A DNA stretch of 64,000 bases from Nitrospirota bacterium (lineage in GTDB: Bacteria; Nitrospirota; Thermodesulfovibrionia; Thermodesulfovibrionales; UBA9159), in NCBI GenBank assembly GCA_963699545.1, contig CAVOUE010000009.1, positions 128,001-192,000 on the forward strand, read 5' to 3'. Position numbers and translations under genes: made by a program. Positions within the stretch are counted from its first letter, which is position 1. Each line of letters starts with the position of its first letter. Of this stretch, positions 5,661 to 46,175 are shown piece by piece. Under the pieces are notes generated by a model. It did no database searches and was not told the origin of the DNA. It worked only from the letters and a program-made list of their open reading frames with translations.

Positions 5661-7145
5661 TCAACTTCCCAGGGCCTTCAGAAGGGCTTCCGCTTTCTTG
5701 AGGGTCTCATAGTACTCCCTCTCCGGGTCAGAATCAGCGACAATGCCTGCCCCTGCCTGGACATAGGCATATCCGTTCCTCACCACAAAGGTCCTGATGA
5801 TGATGTTCATATCCATGCTCCCTGAAAAACCGATATACCCCATGGAGCCGGTATACGGCCCACGCCTCACCGGTTCCAGCTCGTCGATTATTTCCATGCA
5901 TCTGACCTTCGGGACCCCGGTTATGGTGCCTCCGGGGAAAGTCGCCCTCAGCGCGTCCAGACAGGTCTTCTTCCCGGCAAGCACACCCCTCACATTCGAT
6001 ACGATGTGAATGACGTGGGAATAGTCCTCAGTGATCATGAGCTCATCTGCCTCCACACTCCCGTACTCCGAGACCTTCCCAAGGTCATTCCGTTCAAGGT
6101 CGATGAGCATGATATGTTCAGCTCTCTCCTTCTCGTTCAAAAGCAGCTCGTTCCTCATTTTTTCATCTTCCCTCACATCTCTCCCTCTCGGTCTGGTACC
6201 GGCAATGGGCCGTGTCTCTATTACCCGCCCCCCCACCTTTACGAGCCTCTCCGGAGATGAGCTGGCTATGAAGTACTCACCAAAGTCCATAAACCCGCTG
6301 AAGGGGGAAGGATTGATGGACCTCAGAATCCTGTAAAGATGCCACGGACTCAATTCCCCGATATACGCGGAGATCCTCTGGGAGAGGTTGGCCTGAAATA
6401 TGTCCCCGGCAGCGATATACTCCTTTGCCCTCTTCACCATCTCTATGTAATCCTCTTTTCTCATGTCGTGTATGATCTCAATCCCTTTCCGGACAGGCAA
6501 AGCAGCCTGAAGGGACCCCGCCCCGTTCAGCGGGCCGATCCTCCGGCAGATCTCTGCGAGGTGATATTCCGCCTCTTCATACCATGATTCGGGATCATAC
6601 CTCATCGTTCGCCTCAGTCCCGGACATATGACCGCCCACGCCCTCTTTTCCCTGTGATCAAAGGAGATCAGTCTGTCAACAATAGAGAAATGGGCATCCG
6701 GGATATGGAGATCATCACGAGTGGTCTTCGGAAGCTTTTCGAGATAATGCACGAAATCATAGCTCAGCAGACCTGCTGCGCCGCCCTGAAAGGGGGGCAG
6801 ATCAGGAAGAGGCGCCTGCTGATACCCCCGGAGTATCTCACCAAGGCCCTTCAGAGGTTTCTTATAGGAGAGCCTTCCCGCATCAGCCGTCCGTGTCTCG
6901 ACGACACCATCCTTTACCTGAAAAATCATGTATGGCTCGAACCCGATGAAAGAGTAACGCGCGATCTTTTCCGGCCCTTTGACGCTTTCGAAGAGAAAGG
7001 AGTGGCTTCCCGCAAAAAAAGGATATAACTCCTCGGGGGAAACGTAGGGTATTTCGGTGTAAAGAGGAGGGATGCCGGTTCCTGTCCTGCAGGATGCCGC
7101 AAACGCCTCTTTGGTCATGGATGTGGTCCATGTGCAGTGTATCAC
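5661..7145 (-). CDS. Anthranilate synthase component I / aminodeoxychorismate synthase family (TrpE/PabB); start uncertain
   Basis: SSPERL, PIAGTRPRG, KERAEHIMLIDLERNDLG, FPGGTITGVPK, AGAGIVADS. Confidence 0.9.
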   Translation of the reverse strand: MIHCTWTTSMTKEAFAASCRTGTGIPPLYTEIPYVSPEELYPFFAGSHSFLFESVKGPEKIARYSFIGFEPYMIFQVKDGVVETRTADAGRLSYKKPLKGLGEILRGYQQAPLPDLPPFQGGAAGLLSYDFVHYLEKLPKTTRDDLHIPDAHFSIVDRLISFDHREKRAWAVICPGLRRTMRYDPESWYEEAEYHLAEICRRIGPLNGAGSLQAALPVRKGIEIIHDMRKEDYIEMVKRAKEYIAAGDIFQANLSQRISAYIGELSPWHLYRILRSINPSPFSGFMDFGEYFIASSSPERLVKVGGRVIETRPIAGTRPRGRDVREDEKMRNELLLNEKERAEHIMLIDLERNDLGKVSEYGSVEADELMITEDYSHVIHIVSNVRGVLAGKKTCLDALRATFPGGTITGVPKVRCMEIIDELEPVRRGPYTGSMGYIGFSGSMDMNIIIRTFVVRNGYAYVQAGAGIVADSDPEREYYETLKKAEALLKALGS

Positions 7146-23029: not shown

Positions 23030-24334
23030 CTATGATGTATACCCGCTCTCGCCGTGTTGGCTGAGATCGAGACCGTCCACCTCATCTTCCAGACTCACCC
23101 GCAGCCCCATGGTCCAGTCAATGACCTTGAGCATCACAGCGGTCACCACAAATGAGTAAAGCGTCACCGCCAGGATGCCGACCACCTGGGTGACCAGGAC
23201 CTTGTAGTTGCCGAAAAGAAGACCGTCCGCTCCGGAGGGATTAATGAGCTTCTGCGCGAACACGCCGGTGGCAAGGGTTCCGAGGATCCCGCCCACGCCG
23301 TGAACTCCGAAGGCGTCCAGCGAATCGTCATACCCGAGTTTCCCTTTCATATTCAACGCCACATAGCATAACGATCCCGCTGCCGCCCCGATGAGAAGTG
23401 CAGGCATCGGCCCTACAAATCCCGACGCCGGGGTTATCGTGGCAAGCCCCGCGATGGAGCCGGTAGCAGCTCCGAACATGGTGGGCTTGCCCCTGTGCAG
23501 CCACTCGATAATTACCCAGGTCAGGGTGGCGGAAACAGCGGATATATGGGTGACCGCAAAGGTCATGGCGCTCAGGCCACCGGATGAAAGAGCGCTTCCC
23601 GCATTGAAACCGAACCATCCGAACCAGAGAAGGCCTGCCCCGATCACCGTCATGGGAAGATCGTGCGGCATAATGGTCTCACGCAGGTATCCTTTCCTCT
23701 TCCCTATAATAAGTGCCGCAGCAAGGGCAGAAATGCCCGAGGTGATGTGCACCACTATGCCGCCGGCAAAATCCAGTACCCCGAGGTCCTTGAGCCATCC
23801 TCCTGTTCCCCAGACCCAATGGGCAACAGGGTCATAGACAATTGTCGACCAGAGGACGGTGAAAACGAGAAACGCCGAAAACTTCATCCTTTCCGCAAAG
23901 GCCCCCGAGATCAGCGCGGGAGTGATCACCGCAAACATTGCCTGATAGATCATGAACGCGATATGAGGCACCGTGGCGGCATAATCAGCATTCGGCTCCA
24001 CTCCCACACCGTTCAACCCGACCCAGTCAAGGCCTCCAATGATCCCGTGAACATCAGGGCCGAAGGAGAGGCTGTAGCCGAAAAGGATCCACTGGACGCT
24101 CACCACAGCTATGGCCACAAAGCTCTGCATGATGGTTGCGAGAACATTTTTCCTCCGCACCATCCCTCCGTAGAACATTGCAAGCCCGGGGGTCATGAGC
24201 ATTACAAAAGCGGCTGAGAGCAGGACGAAGGCGGTATCGCCCGCATCCACCTTGCCTGGTGTTTGAGCGTATGCGCTCAGGGGAAGTGAGAGAACAAACA
24301 CAGCTGAAAGCAGCCTGATGATCCATTTTTTCAT
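23030..24334 (-). CDS. amtB: Ammonium transporter (Amt family), copy 2
   Basis: FYGG, DFAGG.VVH, WFGWFGFNAGS, YDDSLDAFGVHG, QHGE. Confidence 0.95.
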   Translation of the reverse strand: MKKWIIRLLSAVFVLSLPLSAYAQTPGKVDAGDTAFVLLSAAFVMLMTPGLAMFYGGMVRRKNVLATIMQSFVAIAVVSVQWILFGYSLSFGPDVHGIIGGLDWVGLNGVGVEPNADYAATVPHIAFMIYQAMFAVITPALISGAFAERMKFSAFLVFTVLWSTIVYDPVAHWVWGTGGWLKDLGVLDFAGGIVVHITSGISALAAALIIGKRKGYLRETIMPHDLPMTVIGAGLLWFGWFGFNAGSALSSGGLSAMTFAVTHISAVSATLTWVIIEWLHRGKPTMFGAATGSIAGLATITPASGFVGPMPALLIGAAAGSLCYVALNMKGKLGYDDSLDAFGVHGVGGILGTLATGVFAQKLINPSGADGLLFGNYKVLVTQVVGILAVTLYSFVVTAVMLKVIDWTMGLRVSLEDEVDGLDLSQHGESGYTS

Positions 24335-24493
24335 GGCACACTCCTTCCGGGGGATTACTGAAGAACCCTGCCCCGCTATCTTCCGGGATGAGGTATCTTA
24401 ACGAAACGAACGATTCCTTTTTCCATCCGCTCGCTCACCCCACAGCCCGCCGAGGCGGTCGGGGTGGAGCTCGCTATTCGTCCCCAGGAGTAT

Positions 24494-24509
24494 AGCGAAA
24501 GGCGTGCCA
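24494..24509 (-). promoter_or_regulatory. sigma54 (-24/-12) promoter of amt copy 2
   Basis: Minus strand TGGCACGCCTTTCGCT; IHF-like AATCAA-N4-TTA at 24514-24526. Confidence 0.8.
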
Positions 24510-24563: not shown

Positions 24564-24666
24564 CTACAAAAATGTAGCTGGAGGGATTCCTGATGGTAAT
24601 TTATTCTGTAAAAATAAGGGGATAGTGCATTATCCTACATTTTTGCAGCACCTACAAAAATGTAGG
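24564..24666. promoter_or_regulatory. Three palindromic activator sites CTACA-N4-TGTAG
   Basis: CTACAAAAATGTAG 24564-24577; CTACATTTTTGCAG 24635-24648; CCTACAAAAATGTAGG 24651-24666. Confidence 0.7.
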
Positions 24667-24771: not shown

Positions 24772-25128
<357 letters not shown>

Positions 25129-25186: not shown

Positions 25187-26563
25187 TTATAAGTTATATG
25201 CCTTTTCGCCGTGCTGGCTCTCGTCAAGACCGGTGACTTCATCTTCAGGGTCTACCCTGAGCCCAACGAACACCTTTATGACCATGAAGATCACGAAGGT
25301 CATAAGCCCACTATACACCATGGTCACCCCTACCGCGATGATCTGGGTCATGAGCTGTCCGGGATTTCCGAAGAGAAGACCCTTGCCTGCATCATTTATC
25401 GACGGGTCCGCAAAGACACCGGTCAGAATAGCCCCGATGGTTCCGCCTACGCCGTGGATGCCAAAGGCATCAAGGGTGTCGTCATATCCCAGTTTAGGTT
25501 TCAGGACCGCAACTGCAAAGAACGGTATAACGCCGGCCGCGATTCCGATGATGATGGCGCCGCTGATGTTCACGAAGCCCGCAGCCGGGGTGATCGCGAC
25601 CAGGCCGGCCACCGCACCCGATGCGAGACCCAGGACCGTCGGTTTCTTGGAATGCAGCCATTCTGTGAACATCCATGAGAGCGCTGCCACTGCCGTAGCC
25701 GTATTCGTGTTAAGAAACGCAGCTCCGGCAAGTCCGTTCGCCGCAACCGCAGAGCCTGCATTAAAACCGAACCATCCGAACCAGAGAAGGCCTGCGCCGG
25801 TGACCACCAGGGTCAGGTTGCCCGGAAGGAGGGCCTTCTCGCGTCTCTTGCCCAGGACCAATGCACCAACAAGGGCTGCGATACCGGCGTTGATATGGAC
25901 AACAGTACCGCCGGCAAAGTCCAGCGCCCCGAGTTTCTGGAGGAAACCGCCGCCCCATACCCAATGGGCAACCGGCACATACACCAGGGTCATCCAGAGT
26001 ATCGAAAAGAGGACCCAGGCCGAGAACTTCATCCGTTCGATGTATGCGCCGCTCGCAAGGGCAACAGTGATCGCCGCAAAGGTGAGCTGGTAGACAATGT
26101 AAATATACTCGGGTATCGTCTTTGCCAGATCAGAAATGCTGTTCGGGCCGATACCCTTAAGAAAGAACTTCTCGGCGCTTCCCAGTATCCCTCCTATGTC
26201 AGTCCCAAAGGAAAACGTGTACCCGTAGATGACCCAGAGGACACTCACGATACAGAACGTTACAAAGGTCATGGCCATCGTATTGAGAGAGTCCTTCCGC
26301 TTTGCGAGCCCTCCATAGAAAAGCGCCAGTCCGGGTATCGACATGAGCATGACCAGAGCAGTAGCAACGATCATCCATGCCGTATCGCCCGTGTCGATCT
26401 TCAATGGAACCGGCGTGGGCTGGGAAGATGCCGGCTGAGCAGGCGGCGCAGCCTGCTCAGCGCTTGTGGTCGGAGGGTTAGGAAGCACCTTTTCCTCGGC
26501 AAGCACAAGACCTGCCAATCCCAGAAAGCTTAATAGTATTACTATACTGACCAATCGTTTCAT
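25187..26563 (-). CDS. amtB: Ammonium transporter (Amt family), copy 1
   Basis: Signal peptide and Pro/Gln-rich linker; DFAGGTVVH, WFGWFGFNAGS, FGIHG; SD GAGGAGG before ATG 26563. Confidence 0.95.
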   Translation of the reverse strand: MKRLVSIVILLSFLGLAGLVLAEEKVLPNPPTTSAEQAAPPAQPASSQPTPVPLKIDTGDTAWMIVATALVMLMSIPGLALFYGGLAKRKDSLNTMAMTFVTFCIVSVLWVIYGYTFSFGTDIGGILGSAEKFFLKGIGPNSISDLAKTIPEYIYIVYQLTFAAITVALASGAYIERMKFSAWVLFSILWMTLVYVPVAHWVWGGGFLQKLGALDFAGGTVVHINAGIAALVGALVLGKRREKALLPGNLTLVVTGAGLLWFGWFGFNAGSAVAANGLAGAAFLNTNTATAVAALSWMFTEWLHSKKPTVLGLASGAVAGLVAITPAAGFVNISGAIIIGIAAGVIPFFAVAVLKPKLGYDDTLDAFGIHGVGGTIGAILTGVFADPSINDAGKGLLFGNPGQLMTQIIAVGVTMVYSGLMTFVIFMVIKVFVGLRVDPEDEVTGLDESQHGEKAYNL

Positions 26564-26592
26564 TTCAAACCTCCTCATACCTTTATGCGTTC

Positions 26593-27708
26593 TTACCATG
26601 TGTACATAACACCGAGTGCGATAGTATCCTGGCTCTTCCTCTTGCTGCCGCTGCTGCTGCCGGGGAACGACTCCTCGTCTGACCAGTCATGCCGATACTC
26701 AGGCCTCAACAGCAGGTTTTTGGCCACCGTGAACTGAGGGGTAAGGGTCACCTCCTGCAATTTCTGGGCGGTACCGGTCCTCGCGCCGTCTGTGTCCTTG
26801 AAATACTCATATCTGAGCGCGATGCTGAACAGGTCATTGACGTCATACTTCGCAATGCCCGCGCCGCCCCACCACGTGGCAGTGCCACCGTCTGCAGCCG
26901 AGTGCTGCTCAGACCCGTAATCAAAATTGAGAATGAAAGAAAGGTTCTTCGTTGCTTTAACGGTCCCGACCCAGTCAAAGAGGAATCTTTCATCGTGGTT
27001 ATTGTCCGGCTTCTCAGGACCATACATCACATTGAACAACATGGAAAGCTGTTCCATTGGCGTAGCGCCCAAAGACAATCCGACGCTCTTGCCCTTGTTG
27101 TTGTCGTTGGTGTCATCCCAGCCATTCACAAGAAATAAGGCCCCATTGAACGCATCACTGAACGGGTAACTGACCTTGAAGCCCGTATGGGTGAACGGGA
27201 TAGCATAGTTGAACAGAAATGAACGCGAATAATTAGGATTGTCCCGGGCCTCAATGACCTCAGCCCCAAAGTAGGTGACAAACTTCCCGAAATCAAACCT
27301 CAGTCCCTTACCTACAGGTGCCGTGTAGCTTACATACGCCTCAGTAAGGTCAAACACGTCGTCACTGCTGCCAAGACCATTTGAATGGATAAACTTTGCT
27401 GTTTCACCCACAGACAGCTTCAGTTTGTACCCCAGGCCGCCAACAGCGGGTTCTTTCAGGAACTGCAGCTGGGCAAGGTCCACAAGAAAGCTGTTTGCCT
27501 GCTGGTCAAAGACCCTCAGCCCGTTCTCCTTGTTTGCGGGGTTCTCAAAGTTGTAGGTATACCCCCCCTGCAGATAGATGCTCATGCCAAGGGCGTTCTT
27601 GATGTCCTCTGCGGACATGACAGGTTTCTTCTCCTCTGAAAAAGCGCTCATCGAAAACACAAAGACCACCATTATCAATACGCTGATGCTCACAAACCTT
27701 TTCATCAC
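26593..27708 (-). CDS. Outer-membrane beta-barrel porin (DUF1597/BBP2-like)
   Basis: Signal peptide; GKF.T.FGAEVIE...NPNYSRS.LF..AIPFTHTG; C-terminal aromatic residue (YTW). Confidence 0.8.
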   Translation of the reverse strand: MMKRFVSISVLIMVVFVFSMSAFSEEKKPVMSAEDIKNALGMSIYLQGGYTYNFENPANKENGLRVFDQQANSFLVDLAQLQFLKEPAVGGLGYKLKLSVGETAKFIHSNGLGSSDDVFDLTEAYVSYTAPVGKGLRFDFGKFVTYFGAEVIEARDNPNYSRSFLFNYAIPFTHTGFKVSYPFSDAFNGALFLVNGWDDTNDNNKGKSVGLSLGATPMEQLSMLFNVMYGPEKPDNNHDERFLFDWVGTVKATKNLSFILNFDYGSEQHSAADGGTATWWGGAGIAKYDVNDLFSIALRYEYFKDTDGARTGTAQKLQEVTLTPQFTVAKNLLLRPEYRHDWSDEESFPGSSSGSKRKSQDTIALGVMYTW

Positions 27709-27744
27709 TTCTCCCTCCTTTGCCGTCTTTTTTTTTGCGTTCTC

Positions 27745-27972
27745 TCACTTAAATTGATCATTTCGTTCTTTAGTCCCTTCCGTTTCTTTTCGATACTCCC
27801 CGATACCCTCCACCTCCTTCTGTATGCCGTATTTCTTGACCTTGTATCCGATCATTCTCTCGGTGATCCCCAGCTTTCTCGCTGCCCTTGCCATTATCCA
27901 GTTGCATTCACTGAGGGCATGCAGGATCTCTTCCCTCTCCAGTTCCTTTACTTTGTCTTTTAAGGTTGCCAT
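27745..27972 (-). CDS. Stand-alone Fis-type HTH (HTH_8) protein
   Basis: LEREEILHALSECNWIMARAARKLGITERMIGYKVKKYGI; SD GAGGT; lies directly after a sigma54 promoter. Confidence 0.8.
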   Translation of the reverse strand: MATLKDKVKELEREEILHALSECNWIMARAARKLGITERMIGYKVKKYGIQKEVEGIGEYRKETEGTKERNDQFK

Positions 27973-27997
27973 TGTTCTGAAACCTGCACCTCTCTAT

Positions 27998-28013
27998 AGC
28001 CAGAACCGTGCCA
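27998..28013 (-). promoter_or_regulatory. sigma54 (-24/-12) promoter of the HTH-porin-amt-glnK operon
   Basis: Minus strand TGGCACGGTTCTGGCT; ACA-N4-TGT sites at 28060-28073 and 28078-28091. Confidence 0.8.
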
Positions 28014-28267
28014 GCCCATAACTCTGCAGTTTATAAAAGGATTTCCTTTCCAACATATACAACATATTTGTATGTCATTACATTATTGTAGGTCGGGCTG
28101 CTTCAATGGCAGCAACCCTGTTCATCTGCTCCTCCTCGTACTACCGCCTGATAAATGGTGAAACCTTTTCAATTTGTGTATATAATCAAATGGGTGCACC
28201 CTGTTGCCTTGATGCTGACTGCTGCGCATCGGGGTGTACATCGTGACTTGAAAGGAAGGGAGGAACT

Positions 28268-28834
28268 ATGGACATCTTTGAAGCCATCAGAACGAGGCGG
28301 AGCGTCAGGAGGTTCGCAGACAAACCAGTGGAGGATGAGAAGCTCCAGGCCATGCTCGAAGCGGCACGCCAGGCTCCCTCCTGGGCAAATCTCCAGTGCT
28401 GGCGATTCATCGTGGTGAAGGACCCCTCGGTGAAGGATGCGATCAGCGAAATGTCCTATGTGGAGTCCTTTTTCGTTCCGCGGGGATACAAGGCGAACCC
28501 TGCCAAGAAAGGGCTGGCAGAGGCCCCGGCTGTCATCGTTGCCTGTGCCGACCCATCGCAATCGGGGACCCTCTGGGGGCAGCCATATTATATGACCGAT
28601 ATCGGCATCTCAGCGCAGAATCTCATGCTCGCGGCACGGGCCCTCGGACTCGGGACCGTCTTCGTGGGAGTGTTTGATGAGGAACAGATCCGCTCGATGC
28701 TCGCCATCCCTCCACACATCAGGGTGGTTGGCCTCTTCCCTGTGGGCTATCCCCTTGAAGAGAAAGCCTCGGGCCCCGCGCGGAAACCCCTTAGTGAGAT
28801 CGCCTTTAAAGGGACATGGGGAAAGACGTTATAG
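28268..28834 (+). CDS. Nitroreductase family protein
   Basis: [41 protein letters not shown]. Confidence 0.9.
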
Positions 28835-31908: not shown

Positions 31909-34728
31909 TTATTTCATCTGGTTAAGGATTCTGCCGAGTTCCTCAAGGGCCTTTCCTGCTTCTTCGTACTTCCCTTTGCCCATGAGGTTACGGTAGTTCT
32001 CGAAGGCCTTGGCCGCAGCGGCAACGAGGTCTTTTCTGTCCGCCTCTTTTTTCCTCTTTTGTTGCTGTGGGTTTTGCGGCGCTGTCGCTTGCAGAACCCG
32101 CGATCTGCGGGAAGAATTTGCCGAGGGCTTCTTCAAAGGATGCGCCGTAGGCGAGCTGATCGCCGAACACTACCACGACTCTTCTCAACTCGGGCATTTT
32201 CCCCACCGATGCCTGGATATAGATAGGCTGTACGTACATGATGCGGTATCCGGAAAGCGGCACGGCGAGGAGGTTTCCGAACCTCACCTGGCTTCCCTGC
32301 TGGTTCCAGAGAGTGAGGTCCTTGCTTATCGTCTCGTCCTGATTGATGCGGATGCCGATCTGGAGCGGGCCGTAGACCTGGCGGTCTTTCGGGAATTTGA
32401 AGAGCATCAGCTTTCCCGTACTTGTCGCCATCGCACCGCGCCATGATCATGGCAACCATGTTGTTTCTCGGACTGTTCTTGTCAGTGCTGTACGGGGAGA
32501 ATGGGAGGGTAAGGACAAATTCCTCCCTGTCCGAGTCAGGCAGCTTCGAAATCAGGTAATAAGGCGTGAATGGGTCTGCGCTTCCTCCTGGCGTACTGCG
32601 ACCCGGGATACTTCCCAGGCATCCTCGCGGTTATAAAAGACGCCGGGGTCTGCCATGTGATAGATCGCATAGATGTGGCTTTGGACGGTGAGCAGGTCCT
32701 CGGGGTATCTCACGTGGGCCTTCAGTGACTGGGGCATGGCATCGAAGGGTTTAAACAGGGAGGGAAAGGCTCTGGCATAAGCCTGGATGACAGGATCGGT
32801 CTTGTCGGCAACATAGAAGTCCACCGAGCCTTCATAGGCGTCGACCACTACCTTCACGCTGTTTCGTATATAGTTTGCCTTTTCCATGGTCGGCTGGGAA
32901 TAGGGGTAGGTCGTTGCAGTCGTGTAAGCGTCCCAGATGAAATAGATCTTTCCTTCCGCTATCACATGGTACATGTCGTTATCAAAGGTGAGAAAAGGTG
33001 CGATCGTGCGCACTCTGTCGATTGACGTCCCGCATGAAGAGAATGCGGCTTTCCGGGGTGAGTTCCTGGGTAGTGAAGAGCCTCAGTCCGTCGAAATCGG
33101 ATGGCGATGGCGAGTTTTTTCAGGAAGCTGTCGATCTTAACGCCCGCTTTCCCCGCATAGGTATTCTGGGCGTTGGTGTCGCCTTTCGGAAAATCGAATT
33201 CCTTCAGCTTGGTGTTGACGTAGACATGGTTGAATGTCTCTTCGCCGAAGTAGATGCGCGGCTGGTCTATCTTAAGTTCGGGATAGGACGCAACCGGCGG
33301 GATGTCCTTGATGTAGTATTCGGGCAGCCCTTCATGGGTGAACTTGTTTACCGGAGCGGCAACATCTCCGTAGCCATGGGTATAGATCATCGTCTCGTTC
33401 TGAAATGTCCTCGACTGGGCGGCGAGGCGGTCGATGTTCAGCTCGCGCAGGGAGAGCATGAGCTGGGTAAGCTTCCCGTTGAGTATGTAGCGGTCGACGT
33501 CGACATCGGGGAAATTGTAGTAGAGGCGTATGAACTGCGTCTGGTCGTTCACCGCTTTGAGGATATCCGGCGCCCAGAGCCGTATGCCGTTGATGATCGT
33601 CAGGTCGCTTTGGGCGAGAACTCCGCTGGGCGAGGGGTTGACGGGAAACTCTATCTCGGCGACGTTCGTGAGTCCGTACGCTTCTTTTGTGAACTTGTAT
33701 GTTCCGTTCGCAGGTAAGGCTTTTCGAGGGGGAGTTCGTTCGGCGCTACCCTGAAGTGCTGGATTATCTCGGGGATTACCTGAAGCCCGACAATCCATAT
33801 CCCGCCGAGGAGGAGCCGCGCTGGCGAGATAGATGCCTACGGTCCGCCTGGTAGAACTCGTAAAGGATGCGTAGAGGAAAAGGATGAGGCAACCCGCAAG
33901 AGCCACGAGGGCAACATTGTACGCAGGCAGCTGCGCGTGCAGGTCGGTCCATCCCGCTCCGTAGACGACACCCCGATGGGAATAGAGGAGTTCGTAGCGG
34001 GCGATAAGGGTCCTGGCGATAAAGACTAAGGTGCCGAAGACGAAGTTTGCCGAGATCTGCGTGACGAGACGGTGGATAAAAGAGTTCCGGGTAAGGTTGT
34101 CGAAGGCAAGTCCGCGGGAACGTGCGAAAAAGGGCATTCTCGACCACATAGAGACCTCCTGACGAGCAAAAGGGAAAAGGAGAAGAGGCTGCCGAGCGAA
34201 TCCACGATGAAATTCAAAAAGGGGAGTCTGAATATGTAGAACCCTATGTCTTTCAGAAATACGGGGTCTTCTTTTCCGAAGGGGACGGCGTTGAAGAAAA
34301 GAAGCGCCTCGTTCCAGTGCGCTGAGCTTATCGTGCCGGCGGCAATGAACAACGGTATCTGGAGGAGAAGCGCGGCGAGGAGTATGAACTTGGAGCGGTT
34401 GTCCCTTACGGGCGACGGCCCTGTCGGTTTTGCGCCGTGGTACCAGAAAAAGACATTTGCCACGCCGAGGGATATTGCGACAAATCCGCCGGCGAGAAAA
34501 AGCTCGCCTCGGAGAAAGAGCACCTTCCAGTAGCGGCTTGCGTATCCGAGGTTGTCGTACCAGAGCGATGTAAGGTAGACATCGCTCCAGATGTAGATGC
34601 CGGCAAGCGCCGCGAGTCCGAGCAGCGCAAATGTCCCGGCTTTTTTGTAACGCCTTCTGCTTCAGGTTGCGTAACACAGGCAGAAAGAAGATAAGGCCTA
34701 TGAAGACAAAGATGATAAAATTGATCAC
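31909..34728 (-). pseudogene. UPF0182 family membrane protein, broken by many frameshifts (pseudogene or assembly errors)
   Basis: Fragments in several frames: FGKEDPVFLKDIGFYIFRLP, YGAGWTD, YYNFPDVDVDRY, YTHGYG, NYIRNSVKVVVDAYEGSV, HVRYPEDL, YGPLQI, YVQPIY. Confidence 0.85.
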
Positions 34729-34825
34729 GGGGTCTCCTCTCACGTAGCATATACGCAAGTCGCTCCCGTAGTCAATACACCGTTCCTTTATTGACAATCA
34801 TCCGGATAAGCAATTAAATTACACC

Positions 34826-44607: not shown

Positions 44608-46140
44608 CTACTGCTGCTGGAGGTCATACTTCTTTATCTTGTACCCGATCTGCCTCGAGGTGATCCCCAAAAGGCGTGCCGCCTTTGCCTGCACCCATCC
44701 GGTCCTCTTCAGGGCCTCAAGGATATTGGTCCTTTCGATGTCTTCAATGGCGGAGGGCAGTGCATCCTTTCCGTGGACCGCATACCTGGTCTTCATGGAC
44801 CTGTCCCTTATGCCCAGCGGCAGGTCCTCGGCAGTGACGACCTTCCCCCGTGACATGACCACAAGCCTCTCTATGGTATTCTCAAGTTCGCGCACGTTCC
44901 CGGGCCAGTCATAGTCCAGGAAGAGGCTCAGGACATCGGCAGAGAGCCTTACCGACTTCTGGTTCTCTTTATTGTATTTTCCAAGAAAATGGTCCGCAAG
45001 CACCGCGATATCCTCTCTCCTTTCACGCAGGGGGGGAAGGAATATCGGGACCACATTCAGGCGGTAATAGAGGTCTTCCCTGAAGTTTCCCTCTGAAACG
45101 AGACCTTCCAGGTCTCTGCTCGTTGCCGCAACAAGTCTGACATCAACCTTTATCGTGCGTTCTCCCCCTACCCGCTCAAACTCCTTTTCCTGCAGGACCC
45201 GAAGGATCTTGGGCTGGAGGGTTATGGGCAGATCTCCGATCTCGTCAAGGAATATGGTCCCGCCGCTGGCCAGTTCGAATCGTCCTTTCCTCGTTGCCAT
45301 GGCGCCGGTAAAGGCGCCCTTTTCATGGCCGAAGAGTTCGGATTCCAGGAGTCCCTCGGGGATAGATGCACAGTTGAATTTTATAAAGGGATCCTTTTGC
45401 CCTCTGGCTCATGTAATGGATCGCCTTTGCCACGAGTTCCTTGCCGGTTCCGCTCTCCCCTCTCAGGAGGACATTCGCCCGGGAAGGGGCCACCCTGTGG
45501 ATCGCTTCAAAGACCTCCTGCATTTTGTCTGACTGGCCTATGATGTTTTCGACGCTGTACTTGTTCTTCAGCTGACGGGTGAGGATCCTCCTTTTCCTCG
45601 AGAAATGCCTCCCGTCTCCTTCTCCACCTCCCGGTGGAGCTTTACCGACTGCGCGATCAGTGAAGCAATGATCTTCAGCAGTCTCAGGTCTTCCTCAAAG
45701 GATACCCCCTTGGCGCCGAAAAGCCTGTCCACGCTCAGCACGCCCAACACCTCGTCCTTGAACTTCACCGGCACACAGAGAAAGGCGATGTTCTCCTTCT
45801 TGATGGTTTTTCTTGCGCCGGTCTTATTGAGAAAAAGGGGCTCGTCCCCGATATTCGGTATGACGATGGGTGAGCCGTGCTTTGCAACCCTCCCGATGAT
45901 GCCCTCCCCCAGCCTGTACCTGCCCCGTTTGATCTCTTCTTCTGACATGCCGTGGGCAGCGATGATCGAGACCTCATTGTTGCTCCGCAGCGCCACCGTC
46001 CCCCTTTTCATGTCGAGATATTCCGCAAGCACTTTCATCACCCCCCTCAGGTTCGCCTTGACGTTCAGGGATGAACCGAGGAGCTTGCTTATCTCATAGA
46101 GAGCGGTGATTCCGAGCTTTTCGGTATAGTTCCTGGTCAT
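44608..46140 (-). CDS. NifA-type sigma54 activator (GAF-AAA+-HTH); frameshifts near 45595 and 45390
   Basis: GAF ([15 protein letters not shown]), [47 protein letters not shown]-terminal HTH. Confidence 0.88.
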
Positions 46141-46146
46141 GGTAAG

Positions 46147-46175
46147 AGTTTACTGGAGCCAGACAAAAATGTAAA
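46147..46175 (-). promoter_or_regulatory. sigma70 promoter of the NifA-type gene, overlapped by an ACA-N4-TGT operator
   Basis: Minus strand TTTACA-17nt-TAAACT-6nt-ATG; AGACAAAAATGTAA at 46161-46174 covers the -35. Confidence 0.65.

Follow-up and report, generated by a model that had tools for sequence, protein, structure and literature searches.

A conserved stand-alone NifA-type DNA-binding domain at the head of ammonium transporter operons in Thermodesulfovibrionales

Protein contacts, such as those made by NifL, PspA and P-II, are known to hold sigma-54 activators in check. The anti-activators NifL, PspA, HrpV and FleN, which are of unrelated sequence, act on AAA+ or GAF domains by contact. 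Interference by a shorter relative is seen with TrlR, which acts against TraR in Agrobacterium, and with the plant microProteins; as a rule such proteins retain the dimerisation domain but no longer bind DNA. Fis, a stand-alone HTH_8 protein of the gamma-proteobacteria, is held to derive from the DNA-binding domain of NtrC. In enterobacteria, Nac couples NtrC to sigma-70 genes.

The gene described here lies in a 64-kb window (the whole stretch of DNA that was analysed), and encodes a DNA-binding domain of the kind found at the C-terminus of NifA. The window also holds a NifA-type activator:

27745..27972, minus strand: mini-HTH gene, an ATG-started ORF of 75 aa with a Pfam HTH_8 domain, a NifA-type DNA-binding domain
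44608..46140, minus strand: NifA-orthologous activator, with Pfam domains GAF, Sigma54_activat, AAA_lid_14 and HTH_8

The earlier note on this DNA knew of no description of such a circuit for amt operons. The full-text literature, supplements and subscription journals aside, likewise yielded no account of amt operons with a NifA-type HTH as a separate protein, and there is none in the accessible part of PMC3162934.

The mini-HTH protein compared with known systems

Residues 8-48 of the mini-protein match Pfam HTH_8 (PF02954) with an E-value of 1.5e-11 and 44.2 bits, against a cut-off of 22, and beyond this there is no Pfam match of substance; in particular, Pfam finds neither the AAA+ domain that interacts with sigma-54 (PF00158) nor a GAF sensor domain. 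A BLASTP comparison with the C-terminal piece of the activator (44608-45300, minus strand) gives 25 identities in 51 residues (49%, E 1e-16), R-x-IGYK included, which bears out the resemblance to the C-terminus of the NifA-type protein that the earlier note had drawn from the sequence. The whole genome contains 25 HTH_8 matches over the cut-off, as found by a profile scan followed by inspection of the frames. Only the mini-ORF and the NifA-type activator among them have the helix W..AAR.LGIT.R.IGYK, the others being NtrC-type. In NCBIfam the top match of the mini-protein is TIGR01817 NifA, restricted to model positions 489-530 of 534, and its 36.6 bits are well below the cut-off of 528.85 for the full-length protein.

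The gene had been proposed not to be simply a leftover gene end. This is upheld: tblastn finds no AAA+ similarity upstream of it, nor is there room for any, the gap to the divergent nitroreductase gene (28268) being only 295 nt.

The AlphaFold2 model of the mini-protein has a mean pLDDT of 80, rising to 88-97 over residues 1-50. Helices are predicted at residues 4-22, 27-34 and 38-48, so that the DNA-binding domain occupies approximately residues 3-50, while the tail is variable and disordered, with pLDDT below 60. The model begins straight at the helix that precedes the HTH, and both helix A and a Fis-like N-terminus are absent. Foldseek gives 2m8g, 4l5e, 3e7l and Fis as top matches, with a probability of 1.00 and E-values of only 0.01-0.1 because the domain is short. 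On the model and these matches, the mini-protein has the three-helix DNA-binding fold of NtrC, NifA and Fis. By sequence, its nearest solved relatives are 2m8g (E 1.5e-7) and Azotobacter vinelandii NifA in 9qq6 (E 4.5e-5), an entry in which the NifL-NifA pair is present. A homodimer prediction for residues 1-56, made with a 69-row alignment, scored 0.40 against a mark of 0.42, with controls at 0.00.

Compared with NifA itself, the mini-protein shares the signature W..AAR.LG.T.R..Y and the three-helix fold, and belongs to the same regulon as a NifA orthologue. It differs in having no GAF or AAA+ domain, and so is unable to activate sigma-54, in being a separate gene with its own sigma-54 promoter, and in having Met, Ile or Val in place of the invariant helix Gln of the activators. 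It resembles Fis in being a free-standing HTH_8 protein related to the DNA-binding end of an activator, with a TM-score of ~0.6 to Fis chains. However, identity to Fis is 24-27%, and the N-terminal arms and long dimerising helix are missing. Fis proper is a protein of ~98 aa with β-hairpin arms and helices A and B forming the dimer, which the mini-protein is not, and NCBIfam gives it no match to a Fis model at E ≤ 1e-3. It is moreover of NifA type and not of NtrC type, and as part of a specific target operon it shares the regulation of that operon, whereas Fis is a global nucleoid protein. With NifL, PspA, HrpV and FleN it shares a proposed outcome, the restraint of an enhancer-binding protein, which implies no membership of that group; unlike them, it would act at DNA sites. 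TrlR and the microProteins are similar in being short paralogues that keep one domain of a regulator and interfere with the full-length protein, as is proposed here for the mini-protein, but the domain kept here is the DNA-binding one.

Conservation and ancestry of the mini-HTH family

A search limited to proteins of 41-132 aa (E ≤ 1e-3) found 607 short homologues of the mini-protein. The best 120 of the 607 are 63-84% identical to the window protein, which is only 49% identical to its resident activator. Named sources among the homologues are Nitrospirae bacteria, Thermodesulfovibrionales bacteria and Dissulfurispira.

The relatives used for comparison were 121 sampled genomes of the same order, which by kinship are not independent of each other. 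Two classes of match were seen in them: open frames of ~56-136 aa with 51-80% identity, which are the mini-HTH genes, and frames of 505-560 aa with 42-60% identity, which are the full-length activators. Retrieval of 74 loci gave 71 intact mini copies (window included) in 64 genomes. Two further genomes have copies with in-frame stops, and the mini-gene is thus present in 66 of the 121 genomes.

The proteins are 56-105 aa long and share a family core, ...LK.K[IV].E[IL]E..EI..AL....W[VI].[AS][RK]AA..LG[IL][TS]ER[MIV]..Y[KR]..KY, which the window protein fits. The core is nearly invariant, while the tail differs in both length and sequence. A full-length alignment of the window protein with 68 others shows L4, E12, I16, G35, E38, R39, Y43, K47 and Y48 to be invariant. 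Over the 46-codon core the mean pN is 0.21 and the mean pS 0.77; synonymous differences are saturated in 1779 of 2485 pairs, and the remaining 705 have a median dN/dS of 0.157. Conservation and dN/dS in relatives had been put forward in the earlier note as checks on the mini-gene, and both come out in its favour. It is concluded from these comparisons that the gene is real, conserved and under strong purifying selection. That it is a non-functional remnant or a chance ORF has only its small size to commend it, and is contradicted by its conservation across the order, by saturated synonymous against 21% non-synonymous differences, and by the retention of its start and promoter; this is the least probable of the alternatives considered.

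When 68 distinct mini-proteins and 15 activator domains are placed in one tree, a single branch separates the two groups (SH-aLRT 95); the tree rests on 46 columns, and its inner forks are not supported. The single split implies that the mini family is an old paralogue, and not a recent copy of each activator end. It fits one old origin of the family rather than local copies. In a phylum-wide sample, candidate short frames of a similar kind turn up in other orders of its class as well as in two further families, and none in five large families (0/60, 0/39, 0/28, 0/17 and 0/12).

Presence varies even within a genus: in genus g29 the mini-gene is found in G024, G036 and G058, and was not found in G079, G069 or G099. 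Where a genome has more than one copy, as with the three of G042 and G084 and the two of G018, G029 and G074, every copy heads a separate operon and the co-resident copies have a common recognition helix. G018 also has a third, divergent copy, at ~6001-6165 on the minus strand of locus L104 (G018:C53), with ...LGITQWIIGYK... instead of ...LGITERMIGYK...; a P-II gene and then a porin gene lie downstream. It is outside the 71 copies counted here.

The recognition helix separates the 71 counted copies from the activators examined. The sequence is (T/S)-E-R-(M/I/V) in 71/71 mini-proteins, against T-x-R-Q in 15/15 of the activators, whose invariant Gln is at the start of the helix. The Glu of the mini-proteins replaces Pro, Ser, Ala, Thr or Gln of the activators, next to the change of Gln to Met, Ile or Val. 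The Gln that is replaced is probably a residue that contacts a base. Because this change is fixed, the same DNA specificity cannot be assumed for the mini-protein, and either specificity or affinity may differ.

Operon, promoters and enhancers

Behind the mini-HTH gene, on the same strand, are genes for nitrogen uptake:

26593..27708, minus strand: second gene, BBP2 (OmpL-like) β-barrel porin (Pfam PF07642, E 4e-86)
25187..26599, minus strand: third gene, ammonium transporter, Amt (Pfam PF00909, E 1.6e-130)
24772..25110, minus strand: fourth gene, P-II signal protein of GlnK/GlnB type (Pfam PF00543, E 5.6e-34)
23030..24334, minus strand: second Amt, with its own promoter (Pfam PF00909, E 4.4e-131)

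A terminator scan of the operon strand found no terminator-like site in the 36-nt gap between mini-gene and porin. This arrangement is general among the relatives, in that 60/71 mini copies are followed on their own strand, at no more than 4 kb, by a gene for a porin, Amt and/or P-II; a further 5/71 are divergent from a P-II-amt pair, and 4/71 lie within 500 nt of a contig end. The activator gene adjoins the mini-led operon in about 10 loci. Where the porin is missing, its position is taken by a secreted protein of ~280-315 aa with a weak Gcw_chp match.

The two copies that remain (2/71) head non-amt operons, one encoding the potassium pump kdpA-kdpB (L111:6671-10560, plus strand) and the other, in L094, a type II/IV secretion ATPase with an MshEN domain (L094:6251-7813, plus strand). 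One family of the order has in its mini-led operon an amino-acid permease with a C-terminal P-II fusion (L117:2525-4441, minus strand; L121:6990-8849, plus strand), followed by a free P-II gene.

The promoters and palindromes described below are consensus matches:

27998..28013, minus strand: sigma-54 promoter P1, TGGCACGGTTCTGGCT, 25 nt upstream of the mini-HTH ATG
24494..24509, minus strand: sigma-54 promoter P2, TGGCACGCCTTTCGCT, ~160 nt upstream of the second amt
28061..28090: enhancer (UAS) of P1, two copies of tACA-W4-TGTa, at 28061-28072 (one mismatch) and 28079-28090 (exact)
24565..24664: enhancer of P2, with palindromes at 24565-24576 (exact), 24636-24647 (one mismatch) and 24653-24664 (exact)

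The pattern TGGCACG-N4-TNGCT occurs twice in the 64-kb window, at P1 and P2, against an expectation of 0.01. In the relatives, at least 10 of 12 consensus positions are matched in 52/72 mini upstream regions. Allowing for matches of at least 9/12, a sigma-54 promoter lies within 90 nt of the start in 50 of ~70 mini copies, mostly at 11-40 nt.

Transcription from sigma-54 promoters usually starts 12 nt after the GC of the -12 element. On reading the sequence, the predicted leader from P1 is ~15 nt long and holds only AGGT (27982-27985), with GAGAGGTG at or before the start site. Of the earlier note's statement that the gene has its own SD and ATG just after a sigma-54 promoter, the ATG 25 nt behind the promoter at 27998-28013 therefore stands, while the SD is weaker than was supposed, as AGGT is all that the predicted leader holds. 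In about a dozen relatives the -12 element ends 11-16 nt before the mini ATG, which would leave a leader of 1-6 nt and put the conserved AGGTG outside the predicted transcript; these loci would have either a non-textbook start-site spacing or near-leaderless mRNAs. The ~160 nt from P2 to the start codon of the second amt (24335-24493, minus strand) are GC-rich. No Rfam match at gathering thresholds was found anywhere in the window, this stretch included. A look for public sequencing runs covering positions 26500-28300 turned up none.

At P1 the two palindromes begin 59 and 77 nt before the -24 T, a spacing of 18 bp. When the loci of relatives are aligned on the promoter, 49/50 have at least one palindrome and 41/50 at least two, the sites beginning near -57 and -75 relative to the -24 T, with a spacing of 18 bp in 29/44 neighbouring pairs. 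The exact tandem pattern occurs in 36/121 genomes and a reversed control in none. In P1-type enhancers the palindromes are mostly 6 nt apart (an 18-bp repeat), and at second-amt promoters mostly 5 nt (a 17-bp repeat), in the window as elsewhere.

In the window genome, exact TACA-N4-TGTA is seen 12 times, against 39 expected from base composition. Exact TACA-W4-TGTA occurs only three times in the 3.04-Mb genome, each time at one of the two amt promoters, and these are also the only two among 149 sigma-54-like sites with at least two palindromes upstream. The operator CTACA-N4-TGTAG proposed in the earlier note is thus real and very specific, exact sites with an A/T spacer being confined to the two amt promoters.

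The same enhancer is found without the mini-gene. Of the 36 genomes with the exact tandem, 13 have no mini-gene. Among mini-less genomes, tandem sites and a sigma-54 promoter precede nifH in G040 and G051 and stand directly before an outer-membrane gene in G118 and G079, the latter having a second such enhancer-promoter ahead of an Amt gene. An AT-rich box with ATCAA, which we take to resemble an IHF site, lies between enhancer and promoter in mini-led and mini-less loci alike. Inspection by eye of 61 distinct enhancer-plus-promoter regions (41 mini-led, 20 not) revealed no mini-specific promoter element, which leaves the shared palindromes as the only candidate sites for the mini-protein. Operators downstream of the -12 element are exceptional, with only 2/50 loci having one (L065 and the second copy in L061). 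As the enhancer, like the operator of the activator gene described below, is also present in mini-less genomes, these sites are proper to the activator, and the enhancer is that of the NifA orthologue and not of the mini-protein. Since the same promoter architecture is found in mini-less genomes of the same genus, the mini-protein is dispensable. The window has the trait typical of the family, a first gene behind a sigma-54 promoter and tandem tACA-W4-TGTa, ahead of nitrogen-uptake genes.

The activator is read in three pieces by six-frame translation. Its GAF and C-terminal parts are in one frame, and ~75 middle codons (~45330-45590), with the Walker A sequence GESGTGKE, are in another, implying two compensating one-base shifts. 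Both activator pieces have TIGR01817 NifA as best NCBIfam match. The frame shifts are probably assembly errors. In the same window the gene for a UPF0182 membrane protein (31988-34797, minus strand) is spread over at least four overlapping frames, with the Pfam model positions in order across the pieces. Genome-wide, 9 of the 24 other HTH_8 matches are in frames of less than 300 aa. The split UPF0182 gene and these nine short-framed activator fragments point to indel errors in the assembly.

In relatives, an orthologue of the activator GAF domain is present in ~98/121 genomes, almost always within a single intact frame of 505-555 aa, and the coordinates place the activator next to nifH in several of them. 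Mini-gene and activator occur together in 61 of the 121 genomes; 5 have only the mini-gene (all fragmentary assemblies), 37 only the activator and 18 neither. For mini-gene and nifH the corresponding numbers are 36 with both, 30 with the mini-gene only, 11 with nifH only and 44 with neither. The mini-gene is hence not confined to non-diazotrophs, 36/66 of the mini-bearing genomes having nifH over the curated cut-off. No nitrogenase was detected in the window genome, which is 87% complete, and NifA here therefore appears to serve the amt cluster alone.

A single palindrome lies in front of the activator gene:

46162..46173: palindrome, TACATTTTTGTC as read on the strand of the gene, beginning 32 nt ahead of the activator ATG

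It overlaps a possible -35 element, TTTACA, with TAAACT as a possible -10, in which case the activator mRNA would be nearly leaderless. The genome of 3.04 Mb has 36 ACA-W4-TGT cores, so that a chance match within 100 nt of a given start is expected about once in a thousand. A palindrome at -32/-34 is found in 15/32 activator upstream regions (window included), in 5 more it lies elsewhere within 160 nt, and the other 12 lack it. NifA probably acts here as a repressor of its own gene, at a site that the mini-protein could also use. The suggestion in the earlier note that the mini-protein could also repress the activator gene is supported to the extent that a single operator overlaps a putative promoter there; against it, the site is also present in mini-less genomes (4 of the 15 regions with a -32/-34 site come from genomes in which no mini-gene was found), and the mini-protein is not needed for it.

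Possible function of the mini-HTH protein

The mini-protein probably tunes its parent activator. According to the accessible part of a study of Gluconacetobacter diazotrophicus NifA (10.1101/2023.05.30.542961), the isolated DNA-binding domain is a monomer in solution and binds weakly, with an affinity far below the low-nM values of NtrC and NtrC1 and near the Kd of 200 μM that is cited there for a Klebsiella pneumoniae NifA half-site. With weak, monomeric binding of this kind, a lone domain would need a high local concentration against an oligomeric activator, which makes simple competition harder.

Our preferred reading, to which we assign a probability of about 0.4, is that the mini-protein is an operon-embedded negative-feedback competitor that would act by site occupancy, the sign of its effect being a guess. 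Under nitrogen limitation, NifA would activate the mini-HTH/porin/Amt/P-II operon via the paired tACA-W4-TGTa palindromes. The mini-protein would accumulate beside its own promoter, and occupy half-sites of the enhancer and possibly the site at the nifA promoter. It would be unable to contact sigma-54. Its occupancy would limit assembly of the NifA ring, and expression of this membrane-protein operon would be capped or pulsed, giving a second layer of feedback beside the P-II protein. As every further uptake operon with this enhancer in the relatives has a copy of its own, the effect would probably be dose-dependent and mainly local.

In favour of a local brake matched in dose, the shared palindromes are the only conserved candidate sites near the mini-gene, the motif has no wider regulon in this genome, and genomes with several such operons have one copy of the gene per operon, all with the same helix. 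Speaking against it are the fixed helix changes to Met/Ile/Val and Glu in all 71 mini-proteins, the weak and monomeric binding reported for the isolated NifA domain (10.1101/2023.05.30.542961, accessible part), the dispensability of the gene in genus g29, where the promoter architecture is kept without it, and the activator gene being out of frame over the Walker A region in this assembly.

The position of the mini-gene as first gene suits either sign of feedback, and an opposite effect, in which the mini-protein serves as a positive or architectural co-factor that helps a weakly binding NifA to load or loop in the manner of IHF or Fis, would give positive feedback. It would be in keeping with the Fis-like fold and with the weak binding of the NifA domain alone that the accessible part of the same study reports (10.1101/2023.05.30.542961). 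We consider it unlikely, because mini-less promoters have the same enhancer and ATCAA box, so that no extra factor is required, because the model has no Fis-like N-terminal dimerising region, and because a protein sitting on the sites of the activator would be expected to act as a competitor, not as a helper.

To about the same degree we doubt that the mini-protein is a second-tier regulator resembling Nac, which NifA would induce and which would control other promoters through an altered specificity. The fixed, family-specific change of Gln to Met/Ile/Val is what such a role would lead one to expect, and the gene is presumably expressed only when the nitrogen regulon is on. But all three exact sites of the known motif in this genome are at amt promoters, and two or three copies each heading its own operon would be needless for a global trans-acting factor; no other conserved motif was seen, a result that does not draw on genome-wide de novo motif discovery.

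Less likely still is a poisoning at the protein level, in which the mini-protein would pair with the DNA-binding domain of the activator, on the palindrome or off the DNA, in mixed complexes unable to build an active ring. The helix preceding the HTH is common to both proteins. The accessible part of 10.1101/2023.05.30.542961 proposes DNA-induced dimerisation for NifA-type domains, which would permit such pairing, but also reports that those without helix A do not dimerise in solution. Finally, domain content alone would allow a split gene, the mini-protein being a detached DNA-binding subunit that serves an HTH-less activator in trans; this is very improbable, as the two groups stand apart on the tree and the activators of the mini-bearing genomes examined retain the HTH, their open frames of 505-555 aa extending as far as the C-terminal domain.

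Returning to negative feedback, the picture can be extended, more tentatively than for the single operon, to a class-level lineage of Nitrospirota, in which every NifA-dependent uptake operon would carry its own decoy as first cistron. This would amount to a low-affinity, local and dose-matched brake for each enhancer, and it could, through the enhancer they have in common, place ammonium scavenging ahead of nitrogen fixation. Control by a free DNA-binding paralogue encoded within the target operon would operate at the level of DNA, as a layer distinct from the protein contacts known to restrain sigma-54 activators. If true, this would add a new design principle to sigma-54 control, and be a second, independent route, besides Fis, from the DNA-binding end of an activator to a free protein. 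The system is compact: it has a single activator, two promoters with a 12-bp palindrome found almost nowhere else in the genome, and a protein of 75 aa marked by one diagnostic change in its helix. The mini family to which it belongs is large, with its 607 short homologues, old and strongly conserved, and is central to nitrogen acquisition in a widespread group of anaerobes.
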